From assembly GCA_951406725.2 (NCBI GenBank), contig OX597825.1:48980001-49044000 (forward strand): a DNA stretch of 64,000 bases. Reading direction: 5' to 3'. A program made the translations under genes and the position numbers. The notes below the pieces were generated by a model. That model was given only the letters and a program-made list of their open reading frames with translations. It did no database searches and was not told the DNA's origin. The stretch comes from Octopus vulgaris (lineage: Eukaryota). Below, in pieces: positions 9,161 to 59,721 of the stretch (its first letter is position 1; every line of letters starts with the position of its first letter).

Positions 9161-10431
9161 TAGTGGGGTTGGACAAAGTAATGGAAACACCTAGCATCAT
9201 AGCATCATAATTTTGAAATATCTATAAAACTGTCAAAAGCTTGTTTATTTTTAGGTTTTGATTTATCATTAGTGTTGCTTCATATGTTTTGCTAAAATTG
9301 CTGTTTAGTTTCAGATATCATCAGGAAAATGTAGTTAAAATTCATTAAAATGACAGAATAATCGGACTTTCAAAGATGTCAAATTGTTGATGCTCGTGTG
9401 GTAGGCGCTAGCGTAATGAAAACAGCCGAAATATTTGGGGTATCATGAAGTACTATCTCTATAGTAATGACAGGCTTTGAGAAAGAGGGAAAAAAACCCT
9501 CGTCGAAACAAAACTCCGGAAGAAAATTAAAACTTTCAGATAAGGACCGTCGTATTCTTACGAGAATTGTTAGAAAGGATCACAAATGTACAGCTCCCAA
9601 AATTACTGCAGAGCTTAATGACCATCTCGAGAACCCAGTTTCCACAAAAACTGCTTGCCGAGAGCTGCGCAAAGTCGGATTTCACGGGAGGGCTGCAATC
9701 AGGAAACCACTACTTTCAAAAGCAAACGTTGCAAAGCGTTTAGAGTGGAGTAAAACCCTATAGAATTGGTCCGTAGAACAGTGGAAGAATTATTTTCTCG
9801 GACGAGTCATGCTCTACCATATTTCCGACCACCGGCCTAGTATACGTGTGGAGACAGCCAAAAGGAGCATTTGGCCCAGACTGCCTTCTCCCAACTATTA
9901 AACATGGAGGAGTATCTGTGATGATATTGGTGGGGGCTATATCTTGGAAATCCGCCGGCCCAATGGTTTCCCTTCATGACAGAATTAACAGTCATGACTA
10001 TTTAGGTATTTTAGCTGATCAAATTCATCCTATGATTGCGAAACTGTTTCCGGAGGGAATCGCAATCTTTCAGTATGATAATGCACCAATTCACACAGCT
10101 AAAGTTGTTACTGAATGGCACAAGGAACATTTTAGTGAAGTTGAACATCTTATCTGGCCACCACAGTCCCAAGATTTCAATATTATTGAACATTTATGGT
10201 GCACTTTAGAAAATGTAAGGAGTCGATATCCTCTACCAACATCATCACAAGAACTGGAGACTGCTTTCGCTGACGAAAGGACAAAAATTCCTTTGGAAGC
10301 AATTCAAAGTTCGTAGGAATCCATACCTCATAGAATTCAAGCTGTAATTATTACCAAAGGCGGTCCTACCTCATATTAAAATTAATTTGTTTCAAATTTT
10401 AAGGTGTTTCCATTATTTTGTCCAACACCTG
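9161..10431 (+). mobile_element. Full-length, inactivated Tc1-family transposon with DD36E spacing (Incomer-like)
   Basis: ~30-bp TIRs (GTTGGACAAAGTAATGGAAACACCT / AGGTGTTTCCATTATTTTGTCCAAC) in TA context; transposase from ~9350 with FSDES, FQYDNAPIH and SQDFNIIEHLW; 36 residues counted between the second D and E; stops and frameshifts. Confidence 0.92.
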
Positions 10432-15700: not shown

Positions 15701-15832
15701 AAAGAAATAAGTGAAATACTTACTTATACCCATGGAAGAAGTGAACACTAAGTCATGAGCACAATTATGTGTGCTCATGACTTAGTGATCACTTATTCCA
15801 TGGGTATAAGTAAGTATTTCACTTATTTCTTT
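15701..15832. repeat. Near-perfect DNA hairpin (~63-bp arms) next to a hammerhead motif
   Basis: AAAGAAATAAGTGAAATACTTACTTATACCCATGGAA...CTAAGTCATGAGCACA / TGTGCTCATGACTTAG...TTCCATGGGTATAAGTAAGTATTTCACTTATTTCTTT. Confidence 0.95.
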
Positions 15833-17975: not shown

Positions 17976-18529
17976 TATTTAAATCAATTACGATAAAATA
18001 TTGCGAAATAAAGAACATGCAAAAATATATTGATCTTGCAGTTATAATATATTACATACTAAAGAATGATATCTGAGTTAAGTATTGTATAAATTATTAT
18101 TGAATATTTTTCTATCATTTATGGCACAGACAACAGTAGTATTCATATGTAATAAAAATGCAAATCATCCAGTCTTTCTTAAATGTACATGCATGTGTGC
18201 CTGTGTGTGTGTGTGTGTTTGTGCATGAGTTTAGAGGAACATATTATCCGGGCGGGCACCGTGGCAGCTCTCAATTATGCTTTAAATTACGGCTAACCGT
18301 ATCAATTAGTATTTATCATCTATGACTAACAGGAGTTTCCACTAACCTTGTAAATTCCTCCGATGTGTAATTCTGTGTTTGCTTCACTTGGTGGTAATAT
18401 CTGGAACGTATATTTGCGATAATTATAACGATAGCGAATATGGAGTCCAGTACATTCTCAGAATCTTCTGTGCTGCTTCGTTAAATGGTCTTTCAACCAA
18501 CTTGGATCGAAGCGAACGGAAAAAGAGGT

Positions 18530-19190
18530 TGTAGAGCGAATGCTAAGTGCTAAAAGTCTGTCTCTCTAAACTTCCATGTCAATTGTCAGGAACTAACTGA
18601 TCGCGTTCTTGGAATATAATTATTTGCTCTCGGACACCCAGCATGGCTTCCGTTCAGGAAACAGTTGCTTTTATACAGCAACTGCAGTATTATAAATGGG
18701 TCAAACGTGGATGTGATATATCTTGATTTTGCAAAGGCTTTCGATAAAGTTGATCATGGGATGAAATGTCACATGTTATAGCGAATTAGTCGGAAAACTG
18801 GGATAGTGGTTACATGACTTCTTAAAAGACAGGAGCTAGACTGTGGAAGCCACAGACGAGACAGTAATAGAGTTTATGGTGGTTCTGTAGGACATGCCGT
18901 CAGTTACACAGACAACCACACTTACTAGCTATGCCAACGACACAAATATAATATAGGTAGTCAAAGAACCTTCCGGTGCTAATCTTCCACACATGTAATT
19001 TCATGCAAGAACATTTCGAGGTTTCTTTCAGCTGGTTTGTGCTAACATGCTGCAACAAAGATACTTTAAACCAAAAGAAGCAGCAACTCGTGAGTCAAGT
19101 ACATTAAGTGATCTGGGGATTGAAATGAGCAACAACGCTTGGTTTCACGTGTATAAAACCAAGATATGGACGAAGCTCAAAACAGGGCAG
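18530..19190 (+). mobile_element. Decayed APE-type LINE RT fragment (CR1/L2/Jockey-like)
   Basis: TQHGFRSGNSC, VDVIYLDFAKAFDKVDHG, WLHDFLKDR, SYANDT. Confidence 0.85.
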
Positions 19191-19224
19191 CAGTGTTGAA
19201 CTCCCCCTTCATGAGGCACTCCCC

Positions 19225-19267
<43 letters not shown>

Positions 19268-19352
19268 TATATATGCGGGGCGCGGTGAATAAACTGGCAT
19301 CTAAATTACACAAAAGTTAAAATGACATTAACATCTCATTTTAGCAGATATA

Positions 19353-21598
19353 TCAGGTCATCCCGTAAGTTCTGTCCGTAAGTTCTGCAGTTGTTGTGTA
19401 AAGCAACTTCTTTCTGAACGGAAGCCATGCTGGGTATCCGAGAGGAAGGCATTATATTCAAATAACGCGGTCAGTTAATTCCTGACAATGTATTTCATGA
19501 CTTTACTGACATGGAAGTTTAGAGAGACAGGTTTATAACTCTTAGCATTCGCTCTACTACCTCCTTTATGGATAGGATATATTATGTCGTACTTTAACTT
19601 CCGGTTGCGAGGAAGCTTTTGGAAGAGTATTTGTAGTGGTCTTTCAAGAGTCCCTTCGCTTTTCTTCAGGAGGATTTCTGGGAATCCATCAGAGCCAGTG
19701 GCTGAGTTTAAGGTCATTTTCATCAACAGCTGATATTACATCAGATTATTGCGTTTCGATGTTATCGATAATTGCCATCACTTTGTTTAGAGCTGTTGTC
19801 CCACAGAATTCATCGGACATGGCTATTTGCAAGTGTCCCATCGGACACATTTAGCGTTTCACTTAACATCTGAAGTAAACTCTTTTTCAAATCTATCTAT
19901 AGAGGGCTTTATGGTTTAGTTTTAGAATGTTTACAACCCCGGCTACCCTCTCTGTTCTTTCCTTCTCATGACAGTGTTGAGTTCACTTTCAATCTTAAGT
20001 AGCGTTTACTTGAGATATTATTAATTACTATCCTTTAGTGACCACTTGTCGTCTCATTAGAACCTTTCTTGTCGTCTCATTAGAAACTTTCTATCGAGAG
20101 GAACTATGATTTTCTGTCGGTTTGATATTCTCTCTGGAGCAAACTTGCTGCTTATGTTATGCACGATTGTTATAATGTCTTATAGCTTTATGTCAATATC
20201 TTACGTAGACCAACTTAGTTTCATGACCTCTTTTTTTATACCCGTCCAATCTTTATGAAAGTTCAGACTGAAAAGAGTTGAGTGCTTCTAGTAGCCTGCA
20301 TATCTGTTCTCTGTGAACCGTACATGTTAGCTCTATTAAATTATGGTCTGAGATAATCGCCGGTGTCTCCTTAATATTATGGATGAGCGACGCATTATAT
20401 GTGAAGCAAATGTTCAGGACATTTCCACCCCTTGTTGGTGGAACACTATTTCTTCCATAAAGGCCATAAGTGTGATGTCGAGCGCAGACTCTACTTGCTT
20501 CTGTTTATGCAATGGCATGCCTGATACAAGGCGGCTCTCAGGCCATTCAACATTATGGAAGTTGAAGTTTCCTTGAAGAAATATGTGAAGGCTGACAACT
20601 AGATTGTTTTATACTTCTTCCATCTTTTTGAGGCTCATTTCGAATGAGTCCCCATAATTTGGTACATGTATATTGCCATTGCCATAGCGCATTGTCCTGA
20701 TGAAACATCACTCCTTTTCGATTCTTTATTTCTTCAAAGCTTGGTTCAAACGCTCTAATTGCTGACAGTAGACTTGAACATTGATTGTGGCATTAGGTGG
20801 TAACAATTCAAAGTAAATTACTCCTTTGCAATCCCACCAGATGGAGAGAAGAAACTTTTTCCCATAAAGTCTCATTCTCGGTTGTGGTTGAGCTCTTCCC
20901 CCTTTACCAAACCACTGTTTCCAACATTTAACATTTCGATAGGACATCCATTTTTCATCACCAGTCACAAGTCTATCCAAAAAGGGTGAAATGAGTTTGC
21001 GAAAATGGAGAGAAGAGCAGATGTCAACTCAGGATTTGCGGTTGCTTTCGGACACTTCATGAGGCACCCATTTTCCGTGTTTAGGAACCTTTCCAAGTTG
21101 TTGAAGATGACGATGAACAGTTGTATGGTTTGAAGTAAGCTTTATTTCCAGTTCTTCAACTGGTAATGCAGGATTTTCTTCAAGTAATGCCTCAAGGAGC
21201 TTATCATCAAACTCAACTGGACGTCCTGTTCGATCTTCATCTGCAAGACTGAAATCTCCACTTCTGAATTTTGCAAACCATTTTCTGTAAGTTCTTTTAT
21301 TCAAACATTCGTTCCCATAAACTGAGTGTATGCTTCGAGTCGCTTCGGTTGCAGTGTTTCATTTTTGTACTCATAAAGTATTATGTGCCTCAAATGTTTT
21401 TTGGGATACTTCCATGATAGAAAAGGCTTTAATGAAGGAAATTTTAATTCTAATATTGTGTAAAATAATATTTAATTAGTTCAAATGTACACAAATGCAT
21501 AGAAATAATTTTAAATTCCATTAGACATTATAAAATACTATTAAATTTCCTTCAATTTTAAAATGGTCAAATTGGACTGAACTTAGGAAATGACCTGA
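19353..21598 (-). mobile_element. Mariner element bounded by TIRs; 3' half of transposase replaced by a LINE segment
   Basis: TA|TCAGGTCATCCCGTAAGTTCTGTCC versus GGACTGAACTTAGGAAATGACCTGA|TA; transposase ~21415 to ~20685 with KWFAKFRSGDF, WVPHEV, LVTGDEKW and FHQDNA, after which homology stops. Confidence 0.88.
19386..20682 (-). mobile_element. LINE fragment (APE endonuclease end plus RT start), same family as 18530-19190
   Basis: GNFNFHNVEW and SDHNLIE (APE); SATGSDGFPEILLK and PIHKGGSRANAKSYKPVSL (RT); 19386-19555 is homologous to the reverse complement of ~18530-18690. Confidence 0.85.
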
Positions 21599-22143: not shown

Positions 22144-22261
22144 TAAATAATGAGGGAGAAAAAGTGAATATTAATTTAATTAATATCAATTTAAAACCAG
22201 TAGCCTAGCATACAAAAATCTGAAAAATCAGAGAAAATTCTAATACATGTGTATATATAAA

Positions 22262-22903
22262 GGCTAAAAAACCACAAACTGGTCAGCCGTATGCTAGAAG
22301 TAGATCCCCTACGATCAAACTACAAAGAAAAGAATGTTCTCTAGGGAAAAATTCAGCGGACACCAGAACAATATACGGGCAAGACAGATGAAAATTATAT
22401 AAAAAACAAGAATTACTTGCAGGACGACGGTTTCGCCTATTAACGAATGAATCACTTACGTAATCTCTGGTCCGTAGGCTCGTCAGTACGATCGTTCCAA
22501 AGATAATATAATTTGTAAATCATTTACTGCAGATTTTGCTTCCGGAATTTTAGCGCGCCAGAACTCAGATATTTGAAATTAACCACAATGTAATCGGTGA
22601 AACTAAGCACATGTCTGTTTTTATACGGAAAACTGGTGGTTAGTTTTACAAATTATATTACCTGTAGAACGATCGTACTGACGAGCTTACGGACGAGGGA
22701 TTTTGTAAGTGATTCATTCATTAACAGAAGAAACCACCAGTCTGGGAGTAATTCTTGTTTTTTATATAATTTTTTTCTGTCTTGCCCACATATTGTTCTG
22801 GTGTCCGCTGAATTTTTCTCTTGAGAACATTCTTTTCTTTGTAGTTTGATCATAGGTGATCTACTTCTAGCATACGGCTGACCACTTAGTAGTTTCTTAG
22901 CTC
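22262..22903. mobile_element. Fold-back element (arms ~22262-22519 and ~22645-22903); probable inverted pair of PLE pseudo-LTRs
   Basis: TGGTCAGCCGTATGCTAGAAGTAGATC / GATCTACTTCTAGCATACGGCTGACCA with colinear arms; each arm holds a hammerhead-like motif; microsatellite flanks. Confidence 0.85.
22418..22490 (-). ncRNA. Hammerhead ribozyme motif in the left arm (more degenerate mirror at 22674-22746, + strand)
   Basis: CGTA-CTGACGA-GCCTA...TAGGC-GAAAC-CGTC-GTC-cTGC; stem II perfect 5 bp, stem I off by one nucleotide. Confidence 0.65.
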
Positions 22904-22908
22904 TTTAA

Positions 22909-22976
<68 letters not shown>

Positions 22977-23011: not shown

Positions 23012-23429
23012 GGTAAAATATGAAAAATCAACGAAAATGCATATTGCAGATAGAAAAAGGCTATTTATGACAGGTAGTGACAAATATATACATTTAGATT
23101 GACTGAGGTAGTAATACGAGTCATAAAGGTCATTATTATGAGATGATTATAAGATGATAATAATAATAAAGTAAGAGAAGAAAACGAACCAACTGGTTTA
23201 CGCGAAGGCTATTTATCGTTTTTGATGAATAGCCTTCGCGTAAACCAATCGGTTTGTTTTGTTCTCTTAATTTATTATTATTATCATCTTATAATCATCT
23301 CATGATAATGACCTTTATGACTCGTATTACTACCTCAGTCAATCTAAATGTATATATTTGTCACTACCTGTCATAAATAGCCTTTTTCTATCTGCAATAT
23401 GCATTTTCGTCGATTTTTCATATTTTACC
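23012..23429. repeat. Near-perfect 418-bp palindrome with a 6-nt loop at 23218-23223
   Basis: Arms of ~206 bp are reverse complements with only scattered mismatches; lies between (TA)n runs. Confidence 0.97.
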
Positions 23430-23475
23430 TAACATTTCCACGTGTATTTTATATTTTCTTTTCGTAACATATTTC

Positions 23476-23554
<79 letters not shown>

Positions 23555-23615
23555 CACACATACATACATACATACATACATACATACATACATACATACA
23601 TACATACATACATAC

Positions 23616-23659
<44 letters not shown>

Positions 23660-23777
23660 TGTTATATTTCGGAATGGTCACATTGCCAGTTTAGTCAATA
23701 GAAACACACACACTATATATTTGGTGTTATTTTGCTTCAGTGTTATTTAATTTTTACATTAATCTTAATCTTATTTC

Positions 23778-23822
23778 GGCCAGAGTTCTTTCGTCACACT
23801 CCTGTGACCGCATCAGTGGTCC
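23778..23822 (-). ncRNA. Minimal hammerhead ribozyme motif in the inverted pseudo-LTR
   Basis: GGACCA-CTGATGC-G-GTCAC-AGGAGT-GTGAC-GAAA-GAAC-TC-TGGCC; core variant at position 9; absent from the right arm. Confidence 0.65.
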
Positions 23823-24020
23823 TTTGTTTTCTTCTCTTCTTTCTTATTTGTGTCTCTCCTTACTAACCGTCAGCCATTTTGTATTTCTATTGTATCTCTA
23901 TGTGCGTCTACGTTTATTTAGTGTGTGTGTGGGGGATGCCTGTAATATTTGTATTTTCTGTTTATATATGTTCATGTAATATGTATTTTGTTTTTGTTGT
24001 TTTTGTTTATTCTTATTTTG

Positions 24021-24875
24021 ATGGCAGACCTCGTCAGAATAATGAGAAATGTGTCACGCATGTGCGAGCCCACAGAGTTAAAGAGACACATACAATATTT
24101 CATTCACCGCATGCAGTTCTCAGGTTACAGCCATAAAGAAAGGATCAGAGTATACAAAGGAGCATGAAGAAATTTGATAATATATTATGTAATGATAGGA
24201 ATGGGATTTGCCCACTCTATAGGAACAAGTCATGGAACACTATAGAAAGGAGAAAAAAGAAAATAGGGAAGGCCAACTCTTGGTATGATAGCCATAAATA
24301 CCAGAGTGTCATGTTCGTTGACACAACCCCTGGAGGTGAACTGGCGTACCGCTTTAGAAGGACCCTAGACAAACTTAAGCTAAGAATTAAGGTTGTTGAA
24401 AAGCCAGGCAACCCTATCAAATCTATAATTGGTAGAACCTATCCTTTTAGTAGAACCCTCTGTACGGATAAGTACTGTATGTAGATTTAGCCCACAAACA
24501 AACTGTAAAGCCAGAAATGTAGTCTATAGTATAAGATGTATAGAGGGACGACGCAGTAACAAGACAACGACATACGTAGGGGAAACGGCAAGAAGCATAG
24601 GAGAGCGGGTAAATGTACATTGGAGACAACTCAAGGAAGGTAAAAGCTCATCGATTCTGTACCAACACGCCGAACAGGAACACGGGGGATCAATCAATAA
24701 CATAGAAATTAAAATATTGTCCACACATAGAACAGATGCAACAATTAGACAAATTACAGAAGCTACACACATAATAGAAAATAAACCTAGCCTGAATAGA
24801 AAACTAGAATGGAGCACTAGCGCACACCAAGACGATAGAGGATCCCGAAAAAATAATAAATACACAGATAAATAA
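24021..24875 (+). pseudogene. PLE ORF 3' part (RT thumb/linker plus GIY-YIG endonuclease), two frameshifts
   Basis: RMQFSGYS, PLYRNKSW, NVVYSIRC...YVGETARSIGERVNVH, ILYQHAEQEH, RQITEATHI...PSLNRKLEW. Confidence 0.9.
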
Positions 24876-25406
24876 ACAAATAGAAATAAATAACTATATA
24901 TATATATATTTTTTTCGATTCGATTTATTATTATTATTAGTAGTATTGTTGTTATACATACATACATACAAGCATATGTAATGATAATAATAAGTGGATG
25001 TAAACACATGAACAAAATAAGAATAAACAAAAACAACAAAAACAAAATACATATTACATGAACATATATAAACAGAAGATACAAATATTAAAGGCATCCC
25101 CCCCACATACACACACTAAATAAACATAGACGCACATAGAGATACAATAGAAATACAAAATGGCTGACGGTTAGTAAGGAGAGACACAAATAAGAAAGAA
25201 GAGAAGAAAACAAAGGACCACTTTCTGGCCGAAATAAGATTAAGATTAATGTAAAAAATAAATAACACTGAAGAAAAATAACACCAAATATATAGTGCGT
25301 GTGTTTTTATTGGCTAAACTGGCAATATGACCATTCCGAAATATAACAATATCTGTTTCAACACACGACTTCACATAAAAAATCTTGCACAACAAATATT
25401 TAAACG

Positions 25407-51447: not shown

Positions 51448-51497
51448 AAATAAATGAAAGAATGGAGTCAAACGACGATTTAACAAAATTCCTTTAT

Positions 51498-51578
51498 TCT
51501 CGACATATGTTTCGAAGACTGCATATTCTTAATTCCGAAGGAATAAAGGGTGCATTATGCTGCCTTCACATCAGGAAA
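51498..51578 (-). ncRNA. Type I hammerhead ribozyme, left-arm copy
   Basis: Reverse complement of 53761-53841 with one difference in stem II. Confidence 0.8.
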
Positions 51579-52236
51579 GACAAGGAACTTATGTCAGCAC
51601 CATGACGAACAAAAACGTTTAGATGACTGCCCACACGGTGTCCATAGTGATACTGAGTGTTTCTTTAAAATATTCCGTTATAAGCAGTGACGTCAAAATT
51701 GGTTGGATGGAGAAGATTCTAAAAAGTTCAAGAGTTCAAAAATGGTTGGAAGGGGAAAGTTCTAAGAATAGGAAGGTGACAGAGTGCAAGTCGTATGTAT
51801 GGGGATGCGTTGTTGTTTGCTTTTGCTAAAGAGATTGAGTGCCTATGTGTGTGTATGTATATAACTGTATTCGTGTCTATGTGTGTGTGTGTGTGTGTGC
51901 GTTATTGTGTTTGTGGGGAGATAAATGCCAAATGCATCTAGTGGTGAAGTGACAGGTTTGTGTCTGTGTGTTTGATTGTGCTTATGATACAGAGAGGGAG
52001 AGGGAGAGGGGGAGTAGTAGCCCTACATGTAACGGAGTATAAAAAATATATGCTTCTCAGGATAAGAAAACTAATAACAATAGAAATAGTGAGAATAATG
52101 ATTTCAGCTCTAACAACGTCGGCACCACTATACTTAAGAAAAATAATTTACGGACCAGGGGAGGCAATCGACAACCAACCCCAATTTTCCAGCACAGAAA
52201 TAAATATTCCCTTTAATGTAACTGAACAATTCTTAG

Positions 52237-53220
52237 TCCACAAAGAACTATATCTGGTTTGTCATACCTTTCGGAAAACAAATCAAGTCAAACCTTCCTT
52301 TGCAATTCCGTGAAGCCGTGGCTAGGAACTTTCCCAGGAATTCTAGGTATTACTCTACTATCAATTCACATAAGGTAAGGATTGCATTCTCTAACACTAG
52401 AAATCTATCGCAAATTATTGCCTCCCATAACAAGCTGCTAAACAAGGATTCTTCACCCGGGAGTTACGACACTATTCTTACCAATTCCAACCAAACATAC
52501 AATAATAATAATAGAAATAGTATTGATAATAGCAACATTAATAACAACGTTGGCATTAACAATGGTAATATTATTAATAATATTAGTCGGATTATTAACA
52601 GTGGTAGTGTTAGTGGTAACAACGACAGCATTTCTAATAACAGTGATAGTATTGATGATAACAACGGCAGCATTTCTATAGCCAGGGATATTGCCGGCGA
52701 TAGTACAATTAATAATAATAACAATAATATGAATAGTATAGTGGTCAGTGCTAGCAATGATATTAACACCAATCATAACAATAAAAACTCCGTCTTAGTC
52801 TCGGAGGTAAACCCTAACAGATTAAAGTTCTTGTCCAGTAATTCCAAAATTAGAAATTCCATTTACCAGTGTAAAATTTCTTCTGGTACCGGTGTCTTCT
52901 TCTATATTGGGGCGACTACTTCTAAATTATCCCAGAGGATTTCCAATCATTATTCAACTTTCCGAGATAAGAGGAAACAACAAAGTACAGGACTAAGTAA
53001 ATTAGTTTGGCGTCTTAAGGACAGCAATATAACTTTCAAGCTGGAATGGTCCATATTGTCTGTATCCTTTCCTTTTGATAAGGGCAGAAAATCTTGTGGC
53101 GTCTGTAATTCCGAGCTTTTCTATATACTTTTCGCCAAATTCCCTTTGGTAAACACAATGGTAGAAAAATCCTATAGGTGCGTGCACTGGCAGAAACACA
53201 CCTTCCACTCATATGAATGA
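52237..53220 (+). CDS. PLE ORF 3' part: RT thumb end, Asn-rich linker, GIY-YIG endonuclease (Naiad/Chlamys-like by motif); lacks RT core
   Basis: YIWFVIPF...NFP...KVRIAFSNTRNLSQIIASHNK; NSIYQC...FYIGATT...RISNHYSTF...STGLSKLVWRLK...WSIL...CGVCNSE...CVH; uninterrupted from 52237 to the stop. Confidence 0.88.
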   Translation, partial: STKNYIWFVIPFGKQIKSNLPLQFREAVARNFPRNSRYYSTINSHKVRIAFSNTRNLSQIIASHNKLLNKDSSPGSYDTILTNSNQTYNNNNRNSIDNSNINNNVGINNGNIINNISRIINSGSVSGNNDSISNNSDSIDDNNGSISIARDIAGDSTINNNNNNMNSIVVSASNDINTNHNNKNSVLVSEVNPNRLKFLSSNSKIRNSIYQCKISSGTGVFFYIGATTSKLSQRISNHYSTFRDKRKQQSTGLSKLVWRLKDSNITFKLEWSILSVSFPFDKGRKSCGVCNSELFYILFAKFPLVNTMVEKSYRCVHWQKHTFHSYE

Positions 53221-53760
53221 TGATTAATATAGATAACCTCCTTGAATTTAATAATTTGGTTCCACTTCTACAACACCACCATAGACAAATTTTTTTATAC
53301 TCCGTTACATGTAGGCTACTACCAAATTCGTTGGGGTATGTTTTACCATTGTCTCTCTACCTCTCTCTCTCTCTCCCTCTCTCTATCATAAGCACAATCA
53401 AACACACAGACACAAACCTGTCACTTCACCACTAAATGTATTTGGCATTTATCTCCCCACATACACAATCACGCTCACACACACACACACTTAGACACGA
53501 ATACAGTTATATACATACACACATATATGCACATCCCCATACATACGACTTGCACTCTGTCACCTTCCTATTCTTAGAACTTTCCCCTTCCAACCATTTT
53601 TGAACTCTTGAACTTTTTAGAATCTTCTCCATCCAACCAATTTTGACGTCACTGCTTATAACGGAATATTTTAAAGAAACACTCATTATCACTATGGACT
53701 CCGTGTGGGCAGTCATCTAAACGTTTTTGTTCGTCATGGTGCTGACATAAGTTCCTTGTC

Positions 53761-53841
53761 TTTCCTGATGTGAAGGCGGCATAATGCACCCTTTATTCCT
53801 TCGGAATTAAGAATATGCAGTCTTCGAAACATATGTCGAGA
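53761..53841 (+). ncRNA. Type I hammerhead ribozyme, right-arm copy
   Basis: Stem I TTTC/GAGA; CTGATGT; long stem II GAAGGCGGCATA/TATGCAGTCTTC; GAAAC-ATAT-GTC. Confidence 0.8.
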
Positions 53842-54036
53842 ATAAAGGAATTTTGTTAAATCGTCGTTCGACTCCATTCTTTCATTTATTTATAGTAAAA
53901 AAAACACACACATTTCCACACGTAAGCACGTGATTTCTGCCCTTGGCATGTAGCTTCAACCGTGTTTTCTGACGTGAATTTGCTACCCGGGTATCGGTTA
54001 ACTGAATTATCCATACTAGGATAATTCATTCAGCTA

Positions 54037-54109: not shown

Positions 54110-54343
54110 TTGTGACCGATCAGGCTATTAGATGTTGCTACATATCGCTGGTCACAATGCGCTTCGCATTGTTTTAGCCTTCAAATGACACCACCCCGCT
54201 GGCTAAACGAGCACGCCAACAGAAGAAAGAGCGAAAGAAAGTTGTGGCGGAAGAGTACAACAAGGATCGCCACCACCCCCTGCCTGAGCCTCGTGGAGCT
54301 TTAGATGCTTTCGCGCAATAAACACTCACAACGCCCGGTCTGG
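54110..54343 (-). mobile_element. SINE family 2 lacking its tRNA-like 5' end, fused to a mariner
   Basis: Matches 28010-28105 and 15561-15693; joins mariner sequence at ...CCCGGTCTGG|TGCAACTTTGG. Confidence 0.85.
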
Positions 54344-55052
54344 TGCAACTTTGGCTTCGGGAAGTGCCGTAGAGCTTCGTTGGCGTCCAACCACTGTGCT
54401 GAGCGTCGCCGGTTGTCGTAAAGAATCCACTTTTCATCGCAAGTCACAATCCGGTCGAGAAACGAGTCGTTCTGGTTGCGTAAAAGAAGGGAAGACGACA
54501 CTTCAAAACAGCATTGCTTTTGGTTGTCGTTCAATTCGTGCGGCACCCATGTCTCAAGTATTTTTGTTTGTCCAATATCTTTCAAGTGGCTTGAAATTGT
54601 CGTATACGTTACGTCTAATCCAGAAGCAAGCTTTCGAACAGTTGTGCGTAGATTGGCTTCGACTAAGGCTCTTAGTTGATCGTTTTCAACATCCGATGGC
54701 CGACCACTACGCTTATCCTCTTCAAGACTCTCGTCACCGCTACGAAATTTCTTGAACCACCGTTGTGCTGTACATTCAGTAGTGGTTCCTGGACGAAACG
54801 CATCGTTGATATCGCAAGCTGTTTCAGCAGCTTTTCGGCCTAGCTTGAACTGGAATATTGTACGAATTTGCTTTTTGTCCATGCTGTATTCAACGTTCCG
54901 TAAAAGTGGCGTAATTATTCAAAAAGAAAAAGGGCCAAAAACGGGATTTAAACTGATATATAAAGTCAAAGTAATTTAGCGAAAATTAATTTGAAAATAC
55001 TTAATTTAAAACCAAAATTTTAAATTCTGCAAGAACTTTCTTGACAACCTAA
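54340..55052 (-). mobile_element. Mariner element, 5' half
   Basis: End GCAAGAACTTTCTTGACAACCTAA|TA; [13 protein letters not shown]...[11 protein letters not shown]...WVPHEL...[13 protein letters not shown]...PKPKLHQ, then truncated. Confidence 0.92.
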
Positions 55053-56575: not shown

Positions 56576-56791
56576 TATGACAGGTAATGGTGTAAGTATG
56601 ACCCAAAGGTGCCAGGTAATGCTGAGTAAGTGCTATGGATAGACCATAGTTAAGCTCCAGGTTCGGTGATTTTCCGAATAAGGAGTCCAACGTAGGTCAT
56701 ATATCAGCGTGTGTATATATAGAAAAATTTTTTTCAGAATGAGATAACAAAACCAAGGCCGAGAAGATTTTAGAACATTTATAAATAGAAG

Positions 56792-56841
56792 GTCTGACAT
56801 CTGTTTCCAGGATATTTATAGTATATCCCATCATCGGAGAC
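56792..56841 (-). ncRNA. Type I hammerhead ribozyme motif with one core substitution
   Basis: GTCT-CCGATGA-TGGGATAT-ACTATAA-ATATCCTG-GAAAC-AGAT-GTC-AGAC; stems I and II pair fully, U4 is C. Confidence 0.75.
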
Positions 56842-57263
56842 GGTGTTAGAGAAAGGTTAAGCAATACTTAATTCAGATAAGATAGGAAATAGAGAGTGAA
56901 GCAATGAAAATAAATGTGAGATATGCAGGGACATCGCATTTGTAGACTCATTATTTAGGCAGAATGGTATACACATAAGATTCCAATACCTTGTGAGTAA
57001 AATCCAATGGTATCTAAAAATTGGTCATTCCAAGTATAGAGTTTGTACACGGTGCTATTGAATCAAAGATTTTATTTAAAGAGACTTAAAGTAGGGAATG
57101 TATTTGTAAGGTCAAATCGAAAACAGGAAGAGACGAATAAAGAAAAGAGAGAAAAAAAAGAAAAAAAATGGAAGAGAGAAATAAAGAAATGAAAGAAAAC
57201 AAGGAGAGAGATAATAAGGAGACATTTACCAGTTAGTGGTCAGACAAGATAAATTGAAAGATG

Positions 57264-57525
57264 GAATGGGGAGATGAGAGTAATGCATAGAGAAAGGTAT
57301 TAGAATGGGGAGATGAGGGTGATAGCGAGAGAAAGGTATTAGAATGGGGAAATGAGGGTGATAGCGAGAGAAAGGTATTAGAGTGGGGAAATGAGGGTGA
57401 TATAGAGAGAAAGATAAAAGGAATGGGGGTGATAGAGAGAGAGGGAGTGAGTAAAGGAGTGTCATTTATGTAGTGATAGAGAGAGAGGGAGTGAGTAAAG
57501 GAGTGTCATCTATGTAGTGATAGAG
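57264..57525. repeat. Minisatellites in the left arm: ~4 x 39 bp, then 2 x 45 bp
   Basis: Unit GAATGGGGAGATGAGGGTGATAGCGAGAGAAAGGTATTA at 57264, 57303, 57342, 57381; GTGATAGAGAGAGAGGGAGTGAGTAAAGGAGTGTCAT duplicated. Confidence 0.9.
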
Positions 57526-58049
57526 TCTAAGTGATAGGGCAGAGAGAGGGGCAGTAGTATGGAATGAAGATTTTGGAATATAGATTAGGTGGTTGGACAG
57601 GTCAGTGCTTACTAAGAGAAGAAAGTAGATATGTGAATACGTATACATATCTATATATTAGGCATGTATATATATATTTATACAGATGTTTATGTATATC
57701 AATATCTACATAGTTAACTCGTAGTCATGTGTGTATGTACACATGCACACCCATATATACTTGTATCTGTATGTATTATCGCCCCTGTATACGCAAGTAT
57801 ACATACATTGCATACATACATTCACACATACACACATACATACATGCACACACACACATACATATACACACACATATGCATGCAAGCATATACACAGGAA
57901 TATAATTAGATGGTTATGATATTCGAGTATGAGTGAGGAATTAGAAAGAGATTAAGAGTTAAAATGTAGATTTATAAGGTTACTGGGATTACCAAAGAGG
58001 TATTGTGGAAATATACTGTATGGTCGTTTAGGCATTTGGATTTGTGGTA

Positions 58050-58430
58050 GAATTTGAATGTGTGAGAAAATCGATGGTTGCATATGCTCAGTGCCTCATT
58101 ATGTTTATTTAGCAGTGCTGGAGTGCTGTGCTTTAATATGTGAAGTGCCTCCTTCAGGCAAGGTTTGCAGGTTGAACGTTGACCAAGGTAGGGAAGACCC
58201 GAGTCCAGTATGGACCATGATAGAGTATAGGGTATATTTGTATTTTTGAGATGATGTATGTGGTTGGCGAATGTTGTAGATTTACTATGTTTATCGTATC
58301 TAAAATAATGGAGGTGAGCGTCATATCATTGCTTAAAATATTTGTTTGATCCTATGTACATGGCTGTAAGAGTTGTGTAATAGATTAAGGACAGTGCATT
58401 TGTAAAGTACATTATATCTTCTGCAATTCT
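58050..58430 (-). pseudogene. PLE GIY-YIG endonuclease remnant (Naiad/Chlamys-like)
   Basis: DIMY...AMYIGSNKYFKQ*YDAH...KSTTFANHIHHLKNTNIPYTLSWSIL...TCKPCLKEALHIL...LLNKHNEALSICNHR. Confidence 0.8.
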
Positions 58431-59649
58431 TCTATTTCTGAACACAGTCCCCAAAACTCACCTAATTGTAATTGCCGTCCTGGGATCATCTGCCCGTTAC
58501 AAACCCATTGCAGAAGATATAATGTAATTTACGAATGCACTGTCCTGAATCTATTTCACAACTCTAAAGCACTGCTAAATAAACATGATGAGGCACTAAG
58601 CATATGCAACCACCACTGTTTTCACACATTCAAACTCTACCACAAATCCAAACGCCTAAACGACCATACAGTATATTTCAACAATACCCGTTAGATGATC
58701 CCAATAATTTTATAAATCTATATTTTAACTCTTAATACTTATCTAATTCCTCACTCATACTCGAATATCACAGCCATCTAATTATATTCGTGTGTATATG
58801 CGTGCATGTATATGTGCGTGTATATGTTTGTAAGTGCATGTATGTATGTATATGTGTATGTGTGAATGTATGTATGTATGCAAGATATGTACACCTGCGT
58901 AAATAGGGGCGATAATACATAGAGATACACGTATATATGGGTGTGCATATGCACATATACATATGACTACGAGTTGTATATATAGATATTTATATGTATA
59001 AACATCTGTATATATGTATATATATATGTACTAAGTACTGATCTGTCCAACCCCCTAATCTATATTCCTAAATTCTTCTTTCCATACTTCTACCCCTCTC
59101 TCTGCCCCATCACGTAGACTCTATCATTACATAACTGACACTCCTTAACTTTATATACCTCTGACTCTATCACCCCATCCCTCCGATCTTTTTACACTCT
59201 AATACCGTTCTCTTTCAATCACTCTCGTCTCCTCATTCCTACTTTCAAATTATCTTGACTGTCTACTAACTGGTAAACTTTCCCTTATTATCTCCGTCCT
59301 TGGTTTTTCTTTTTTCTTTCTTTTCTTTATTCTTTTCTTCCTTTTTTCTCTTTTTTCTTCTATTTTTACTCTTTTCTTTATTTTCGATTTGATCTTACAA
59401 ATACATTCCCTACTTTTAGGTCACTTTATACCATTCTGTCTAAATAATGGATCTACAAATGCAAAATCCCTGTATATCTCACATCTATTTTCATGCATCC
59501 ACTTCACTCTCTATTTCGTATCATATCTAAATTAACTATTGCTTCACCATCTTCTCACACCGTATCCTGGAAACAGCTGTGAGATCTTCCATTTAAAAAT
59601 GTCCTATAATCTTGTCAGCCTTGGTTTTTTATTTCACTCTCAATATATT

Positions 59650-59721
<72 letters not shown>

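Follow-up and report, generated by a model that had tools for sequence, protein, structure and literature searches.

A dead Penelope-like element with head-to-head arms

Within the 64,000-nucleotide stretch of Octopus vulgaris DNA analysed here (the window), the locus at 23469-25406 is a dead, 5'-truncated copy of a Penelope-like retrotransposon, with its pseudo-LTR arms arranged head-to-head. One pseudo-LTR lies 3' of the open reading frame (ORF) and an inverted, 5'-truncated copy lies at the 5' end, an arrangement that defines Penelope-like elements of the EN+ kind, and both ends of the element are embedded in (TA)n. The locus is made up of the following parts.

23469..23655, no strand: (TA)n/(CA)n microsatellite tract, left flank (from the sequence)
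23656..24021, minus strand: left arm, an inverted, 5'-truncated pseudo-LTR copy (from the arm alignment)
23778..23822, minus strand: intact minimal type I hammerhead-like motif in the left arm, predicted only (from folding and alignment)
24015..24020, plus strand: inversion joint, six bases that the left arm shares with the coding frame, where they encode Ile-Leu of protein P0005
24015..24875, plus strand: 5'-truncated ORF remnant with two frameshifts, comprising the end of the reverse transcriptase (RT), a Cys-rich linker and a GIY-YIG-like endonuclease (from tblastn)
24876..25012, plus strand: stretch from the ORF stop to the right arm, with many short repeats, missing in the left arm (from the sequence)
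25013..25352, plus strand: right arm, the pseudo-LTR copy 3' of the ORF, in the ORF sense (from the arm alignment)
25215..25230, plus strand: deletion scar with both stem I strands, C3-U4, an extra T at 25223 and U16.1-C17; net 29 nt missing
25353..25406, plus strand: A/C-rich 54-nt extension at the right end only, followed by (TA)n (from the sequence)

The microsatellite tract is the likely insertion target; a bias towards microsatellites is known for Penelope-like elements (PMC8557442). Judging by the letters themselves, the six-base overlap at 24015..24020 is likely the microhomology at which the inversion joint formed, and the stretch at 24876..25012 is likely the 5' part of the pseudo-LTR. 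By analogy, the 54-nt extension would likely be the optional 'tail' of Penelope-like insertions, which measures 30-40 nt in described cases (PMC8557442, PMC11167929). A Penelope-like protein tested in vitro cut both target strands and extended each of them, starting at two sites that bound the tail (PMC11167929), and because both strands can be extended, the two arms are likely to be separate cDNAs.

The initial annotation took the arms to be pseudo-LTR copies of a Penelope-like element, and the ORF that they flank bears this out. In tblastn, the remnant is 100% identical over 50 aa, 94% over 106 aa and 81% over 42 aa to P0005, an 803-aa Octopus vulgaris protein named in the database as RT-domain containing, which also carries an Asn/Ser-rich N-terminus. 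The Pfam RVT_1 match to P0005 falls below the cut-off (E 0.004), and three ORF frames of the window copy, including the endonuclease frame, gave zero Pfam matches; we take the endonuclease to be of the GIY-YIG kind from a motif recognised by eye. The linker of P0005 reads C-x4-C-x2-C, and the window copy is frameshifted at this point. Neptune-type elements carry the linker motif CX2-5CxxC before the endonuclease (PMC8557442), and by this criterion the element would be of the Neptune type, a clade assignment made from the linker.

Comparison with Pen2/Pen2a of Adineta vaga (PMC3846280) and with the Neptune clade (PMC8557442) reveals these shared features: 5' truncation, an inverted truncated arm at the 5' end, a putative optional tail at one end, a likely microsatellite target, a Cys-rich linker between RT and endonuclease, and copies disabled by internal deletions. 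The locus differs from these systems, as described in the two papers, in that its one-sided extension is 54 nt rather than 30-40, and in that its deletion lacks microhomology, carries a 1-nt insertion and falls on a hammerhead.

The surrounding (TA)n tracts hold further fold-back repeats, at 22253-22912, 23012-23429, 15701-15832 and 18521-19567, among them a 206-bp near-perfect palindrome with a 6-nt centre directly left of the element. A hammerhead descriptor found nothing in these fold-backs. An exact 24-letter pattern from the arm had 0 matches in viral contigs and 0 in metagenome contigs.

The scar and the hammerhead-like motif

Alignment of the left arm (23656-24021, reversed) with the right arm (25013-25352) gave 336 columns. 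Across them the arms differ by 11 substitutions (3.3%); a C/CA run holds a 4-nt indel, and a single large gap accounts for 30 nt out and 1 in (net 29). The initial annotation had described near-identical inverted arms with a single large indel, which is correct. It had also found the right site for the scar, but began it one base early, at 25214 instead of 25215. Its account of the loss, as 30 nt that make up almost exactly the core with stems II and III, was close, and was right that stem I is left; the net loss, however, is 29 nt, and C3-U4, U16.1-C17 and the cut site remain as well. The scar thus retains both stem I strands, with C3-U4 on its 5' side and U16.1-C17 plus the scissile C17/U1.1 joint on its 3' side. 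Its letters can be read either as 30 nt out with a T in at 25223, or as 29 nt out with a C-to-T change beside the joint. The arm comparison reveals no microhomology at the joint, the 107 columns preceding the gap contain 0 substitutions, and the scar string at 25215-25230 occurs once in the window with up to 2 mismatches allowed.

How unusual is the position of the gap? A random 30-nt gap in the right arm would overlap the core 20% of the time. Placements with both ends no more than 2 nt from the inner edges of stem I make up 3 of 948 (0.3%), and those within 3 nt make up 9 of 948, odds that are post hoc and refer to a single case, chosen by eye out of a family that thousands of contigs represent in each run. 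The scar joint also has a 6-nt inverted copy 30 nt upstream; random deletion-insertions in the arm yield a 6-nt motif in 7-11% of cases and a 4-nt motif in 50%. When the arm is folded as DNA, the motif reaches -5.0/-4.5 kcal/mol, while windows off the motif never fall below -2.8, and no other DNA hairpin in the arm is as stable as stem II.

The left-arm motif is laid out like a minimal type I hammerhead, with self-cleavage predicted only. Stem I consists of 3 bp, a bulge and 2 bp, and the core begins at 23816. An extra G precedes a 6-bp stem II (G10.1-C11.1), which is followed by GAAA; stem III has 2 bp and an AA loop, the triplet is CUC, and the predicted cut lies between 23783 and 23782. Core position 9 (window 23810) is C rather than A, while the remaining positions of the CUGAnGA...GAAA...UH core match. 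Changes at A9 reduce hammerhead activity. Identification of the motif as a hammerhead in the initial annotation is supported in so far as the motif is hammerhead-like. Rfam reported no hammerhead match, either at the gathering score or up to E 10, and the sub-gathering matches it did give were all driven by microsatellites. The folding energy of the motif lies within the range of shuffled sequences (z -0.18 to -1.47). A loose hammerhead descriptor gave 12 matches in the window versus 2-8 in 5 shuffles and, because the shuffles also give matches, it was applied only to motifs inside arm pairs.

The traits of the minimal type are present: an extra base between positions 9 and 10.1, G10.1-C11.1, a long helix II and a short helix I. 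These features, together with a tiny helix III, a location in the pseudo-LTR and the sense of the ORF, are shared with the metazoan minimal hammerheads (min-HHR), for which motif pairs on opposite strands have also been noted (PMC4209133). In contrast to the min-HHR described there, position 9 is C in this copy and in most of the family depth, and the AA of loop 3 is not palindromic. In a dimer, A15.1-U16.1 and G15.2-C16.2 would pair, while the AA loop would give two A-A mismatches. The window holds no other copy of the element family, and so no same-strand pairing partner for the surviving motif. Single minimal hammerheads have been described as failing to cleave, and dimers as cleaving little or weakly (PMC4209133). 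Our literature search found no cleavage data for a C9 (A9C) core, and a value for it is absent from the accessible portions of PMC3088659, PMC9901934, PMC6765202 and bioRxiv 10.64898/2026.07.22.740005.

These details bear on one origin put forward in the initial annotation, repair after RNA self-cleavage. That the RNA cut itself, was trimmed and rejoined, and was then reverse transcribed is extremely improbable. The 3' end of the gap does lie 2 nt from the predicted cut site, and tailing of a trimmed end could account for added U's. However, trimming of the 5' cleavage product would start with U16.1-C17, yet these two bases, and the cut site after them, are retained and still joined to U1.1. 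Furthermore, uncut RNA served as the main insertion substrate in the system of PMC11167929, and the core is non-consensus at position 9.

Family copies and control pairs

Twenty public runs (9 studies, four organisms) contain part of the element, with no RNA run among those listed, and family contigs were taken from four of them. The contigs aligned to the left arm numbered 7629, 5709, 4181 and 2654 in the four runs, and those continuing from 25224 into hammerhead sequence numbered 47, 33, 36 and 29. Because family contigs carry the hammerhead segment, an insertion into the left arm is ruled out and the right arm is the derived state that carries the deletion, as the initial annotation had it. 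Compared with the flanking bin, family contigs cover the motif at 0.2-1.7 times the depth. None of the contigs listed bridges the scar in any of the four runs (of which 76%, 80%, the whole and 98% were read), nor do the family contigs listed include a 29-30 nt gap at a share of at least 1%; considering that contigs drop rare variants, the missing scar indicates neither absence nor error.

By depth, as distinct from copy number, C is the majority base at position 9 of the family, with A at 16-32% in the four runs; U at position 17 accounts for 9-33%. A very large family may thus have spread with a non-consensus C9 core. Both arms of our copy have aged. Of the 11 sites that distinguish the two arms, 4 have a left-arm base other than that of the family majority; the remaining 7 comprise one family polymorphism, the junction base and five sites without a tabulated family allele. 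At 23730 and at 23834 both arms carry the same allele, one that is not the majority or plurality allele of the family, as would fit a single template lineage. The family contigs aligned to 23656-24060 also contain many strand-switch joints within the pseudo-LTR; one of these joins 23950 to 23834 across 8 intervening letters and is present in runs of three organisms, and another, 23793/23936, in runs of two. Such recurrent joints suggest insertions common to several species.

Is the ribozyme a preferred site of deletion, a question that the initial annotation raised? The window contains two more inverted-arm Penelope-like insertions, from other families and with hammerhead-like motifs, which served as controls. 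Pair B (51449-53890) has 13 substitutions in 522 columns (2.5%) and one 32-nt gap in one arm, far from the hammerhead. Its hammerhead cores, at 51574 on the minus strand and 53765 on the plus strand, are whole in both arms; position 9 is U, the stem II region is branched and 54 nt long, and helix III is palindromic. Pair B also has a one-sided extension on the right, and in its ORF (52237-53220, plus strand) the GIY-YIG domain (Pfam E 0.003) is preceded by an asparagine-rich stretch, which resembles the N-rich inserts described for Adineta Penelopes (PMC3846280). Pair C (about 56700-59650) is older, with arms of about 1 kb that may derive from different templates and that differ by 123 substitutions in 903 columns (13.6%). 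It contains 8 gaps of at least 14 nt, one of which (26 nt, with ragged ends) removes the 5' half of the hammerhead; its left motif, at 56837 on the minus strand, has C at position 4, and the half-deleted motif is the right one, near 59563.

With the selected case left out, 1 of the 9 control gaps of at least 14 nt falls on a hammerhead versus 0.76 expected, and 1 of 5 versus about 0.5 expected without the four tandem-repeat gaps of pair C. For all three pairs, 2 of 10 gaps overlap the core versus 0.95 expected. Large gaps occur at 1 per 11, 1 per 13 and 1 per 15-31 substitutions in the three pairs, similar rates that fit decay over time. The controls therefore lean against a preferred deletion site, with a counter-hint from the family: 4 of the 5 skips listed in family contigs overlap the core versus 2.1 expected (P about 0.09), each skip being a single contig with a short side of 22-28 letters.

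The counter-hint touches on a second proposal of the initial annotation, that RT skipped across the folded ribozyme. In its most explicit form, RT left its template at U16.1 when it copied the right arm, resumed at U4 and added one untemplated base, or else it copied an RNA whose source element already carried the scar. The gap ends fall at the top of stem I, on bases that are adjacent in the fold (placement odds of 0.3-0.9%), and the added T corresponds to A on the cDNA, where A is a common untemplated addition. The probable origin of the arms as separate cDNAs (PMC11167929) and the 4 of 5 family skips on the core point the same way. But a hairpin skip occurs at the base of the hairpin and should have removed stem I, both strands of which remain, and RT would probably have unwound stem I before reaching the joint. 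Moreover, none of the five other ribozyme-overlapping gaps (four family skips and one in pair C) keeps both stem I strands or shares the ends of the scar, and gap numbers rise with arm divergence across the three pairs. We regard an RT jump as unlikely.

A third suggestion, selection against a cleaving motif on a transcribed plus strand, can also be compared with the control pairs. Here, a deletion made by DNA repair would have been kept because a cleaving hammerhead on the transcribed plus strand harmed a host transcript. The plus-strand motif is broken in 2 of the 3 pairs and the minus-strand motif in 0 of 3, a difference that is not beyond chance at this sample size. Pair B, however, retains a whole plus-strand motif. 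C stands at position 9 in the left motif and in most of the family by depth, single minimal hammerheads do not cleave and dimers do so little (PMC4209133), and the window lacks a same-strand family copy. In read-through RNA the arms would likely pair with one another, blocking the fold. Finally, no host gene was recognised in the window: Pfam applied to 213 of 218 filtered frames gave only Tc1/mariner transposases and one sub-threshold zinc-finger match, in a scan that would miss short or domain-less exons; the remaining five frames were covered by separate Pfam scans. The transposase remnants lie at 9449-10313 on the plus strand and at 20729-21358 and 54304-54918 on the minus strand. Taken with these points, selection is a very unlikely cause of the loss.

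For all 10 gaps of at least 14 nt in the three pairs, it is the right arm that lacks the bases (25223, 53532 and 59029-59563), regardless of which arm the ORF is linked to. Perhaps, then, an inverted repeat was assembled or base-called wrongly here, and nanopore reads do miss bases in inverted duplicates (PMC7229812). Nonetheless, the gap has clean flanks, with 0 substitutions in the 107 columns before it, and an error of this kind would be expected to affect the second arms of both strands and to do so without one sharp joint. An artefact of this sort is highly unlikely.

Origin and meaning of the scar

In our best reading, a single DNA deletion that followed insertion probably removed the predicted hammerhead core from the right arm. 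The two arms would have begun as near-identical cDNA copies, joined at the 6-nt microhomology, and would then have aged in place until the right arm broke and was rejoined with one added T. The deletion could have arisen from repair of the break by end joining, or from slippage near the stem II hairpin; this hairpin may raise the local odds of breakage or slippage, and ribozyme function would play no part. A deletion accompanied by a small (1-nt) insertion is a signature of end joining. Deletions that disable Penelope copies have been described (PMC3846280). One specific route, slippage between two ACT repeats flanking stem II, was rejected, since it predicts a scar 2 nt shorter than the actual one.

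Junctions formed by SD-MMEJ, for which the criteria are a repeat motif of at least 4 nt that spans the joint and lies within 30 nt (PMC5728401), resemble the scar in combining a deletion, a short insertion and an inverted motif of that size and distance. Formally, the 6-nt inverted motif falls within these criteria, but random cases often do so too. Unlike the junctions described in that study, the scar is one natural joint without a known break, and its 6-nt motif turns up in 7-11% of random cases.

Counting against DNA deletion are the placement of the gap (0.3-0.9%), the 4 of 5 family skips on the core, the lack of microhomology at the joint and the small control of just two elements, in one of which (pair C) the arms may have had separate templates, and the right-arm bias of all 10 gaps is left unexplained. 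Tidy-looking scars would nevertheless be expected in a family so large, with roughly one gap of this kind in each young arm pair (both of the two here), and these would be the ones that a reader picks out. In our literature search, which covered few subscription papers, excision of a hammerhead core from pseudo-LTR arms was not found.

A broader idea is that the RTs of Penelope-like elements jump the three-way junction of their own hammerhead, so that pseudo-LTRs lacking the ribozyme and keeping both stem I strands arise repeatedly. We consider this quite unlikely. If it were true, RT jumping would be a route to ribozyme loss in whole lineages (such as Naiads), and the resulting scars would be a fossil record of the RNA fold during copying. 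Likewise, if the same breakpoints recurred across the family, deletion maps would provide in vivo evidence of a hammerhead that is folded while its RNA is being reverse transcribed, and would be relevant to the role that the ribozyme plays in Penelope-like elements. For now the finding is of little importance, a single decay scar in a single dead transposon copy. The better lead is the C that most of the family, by depth, seems to carry at the conserved core position 9.
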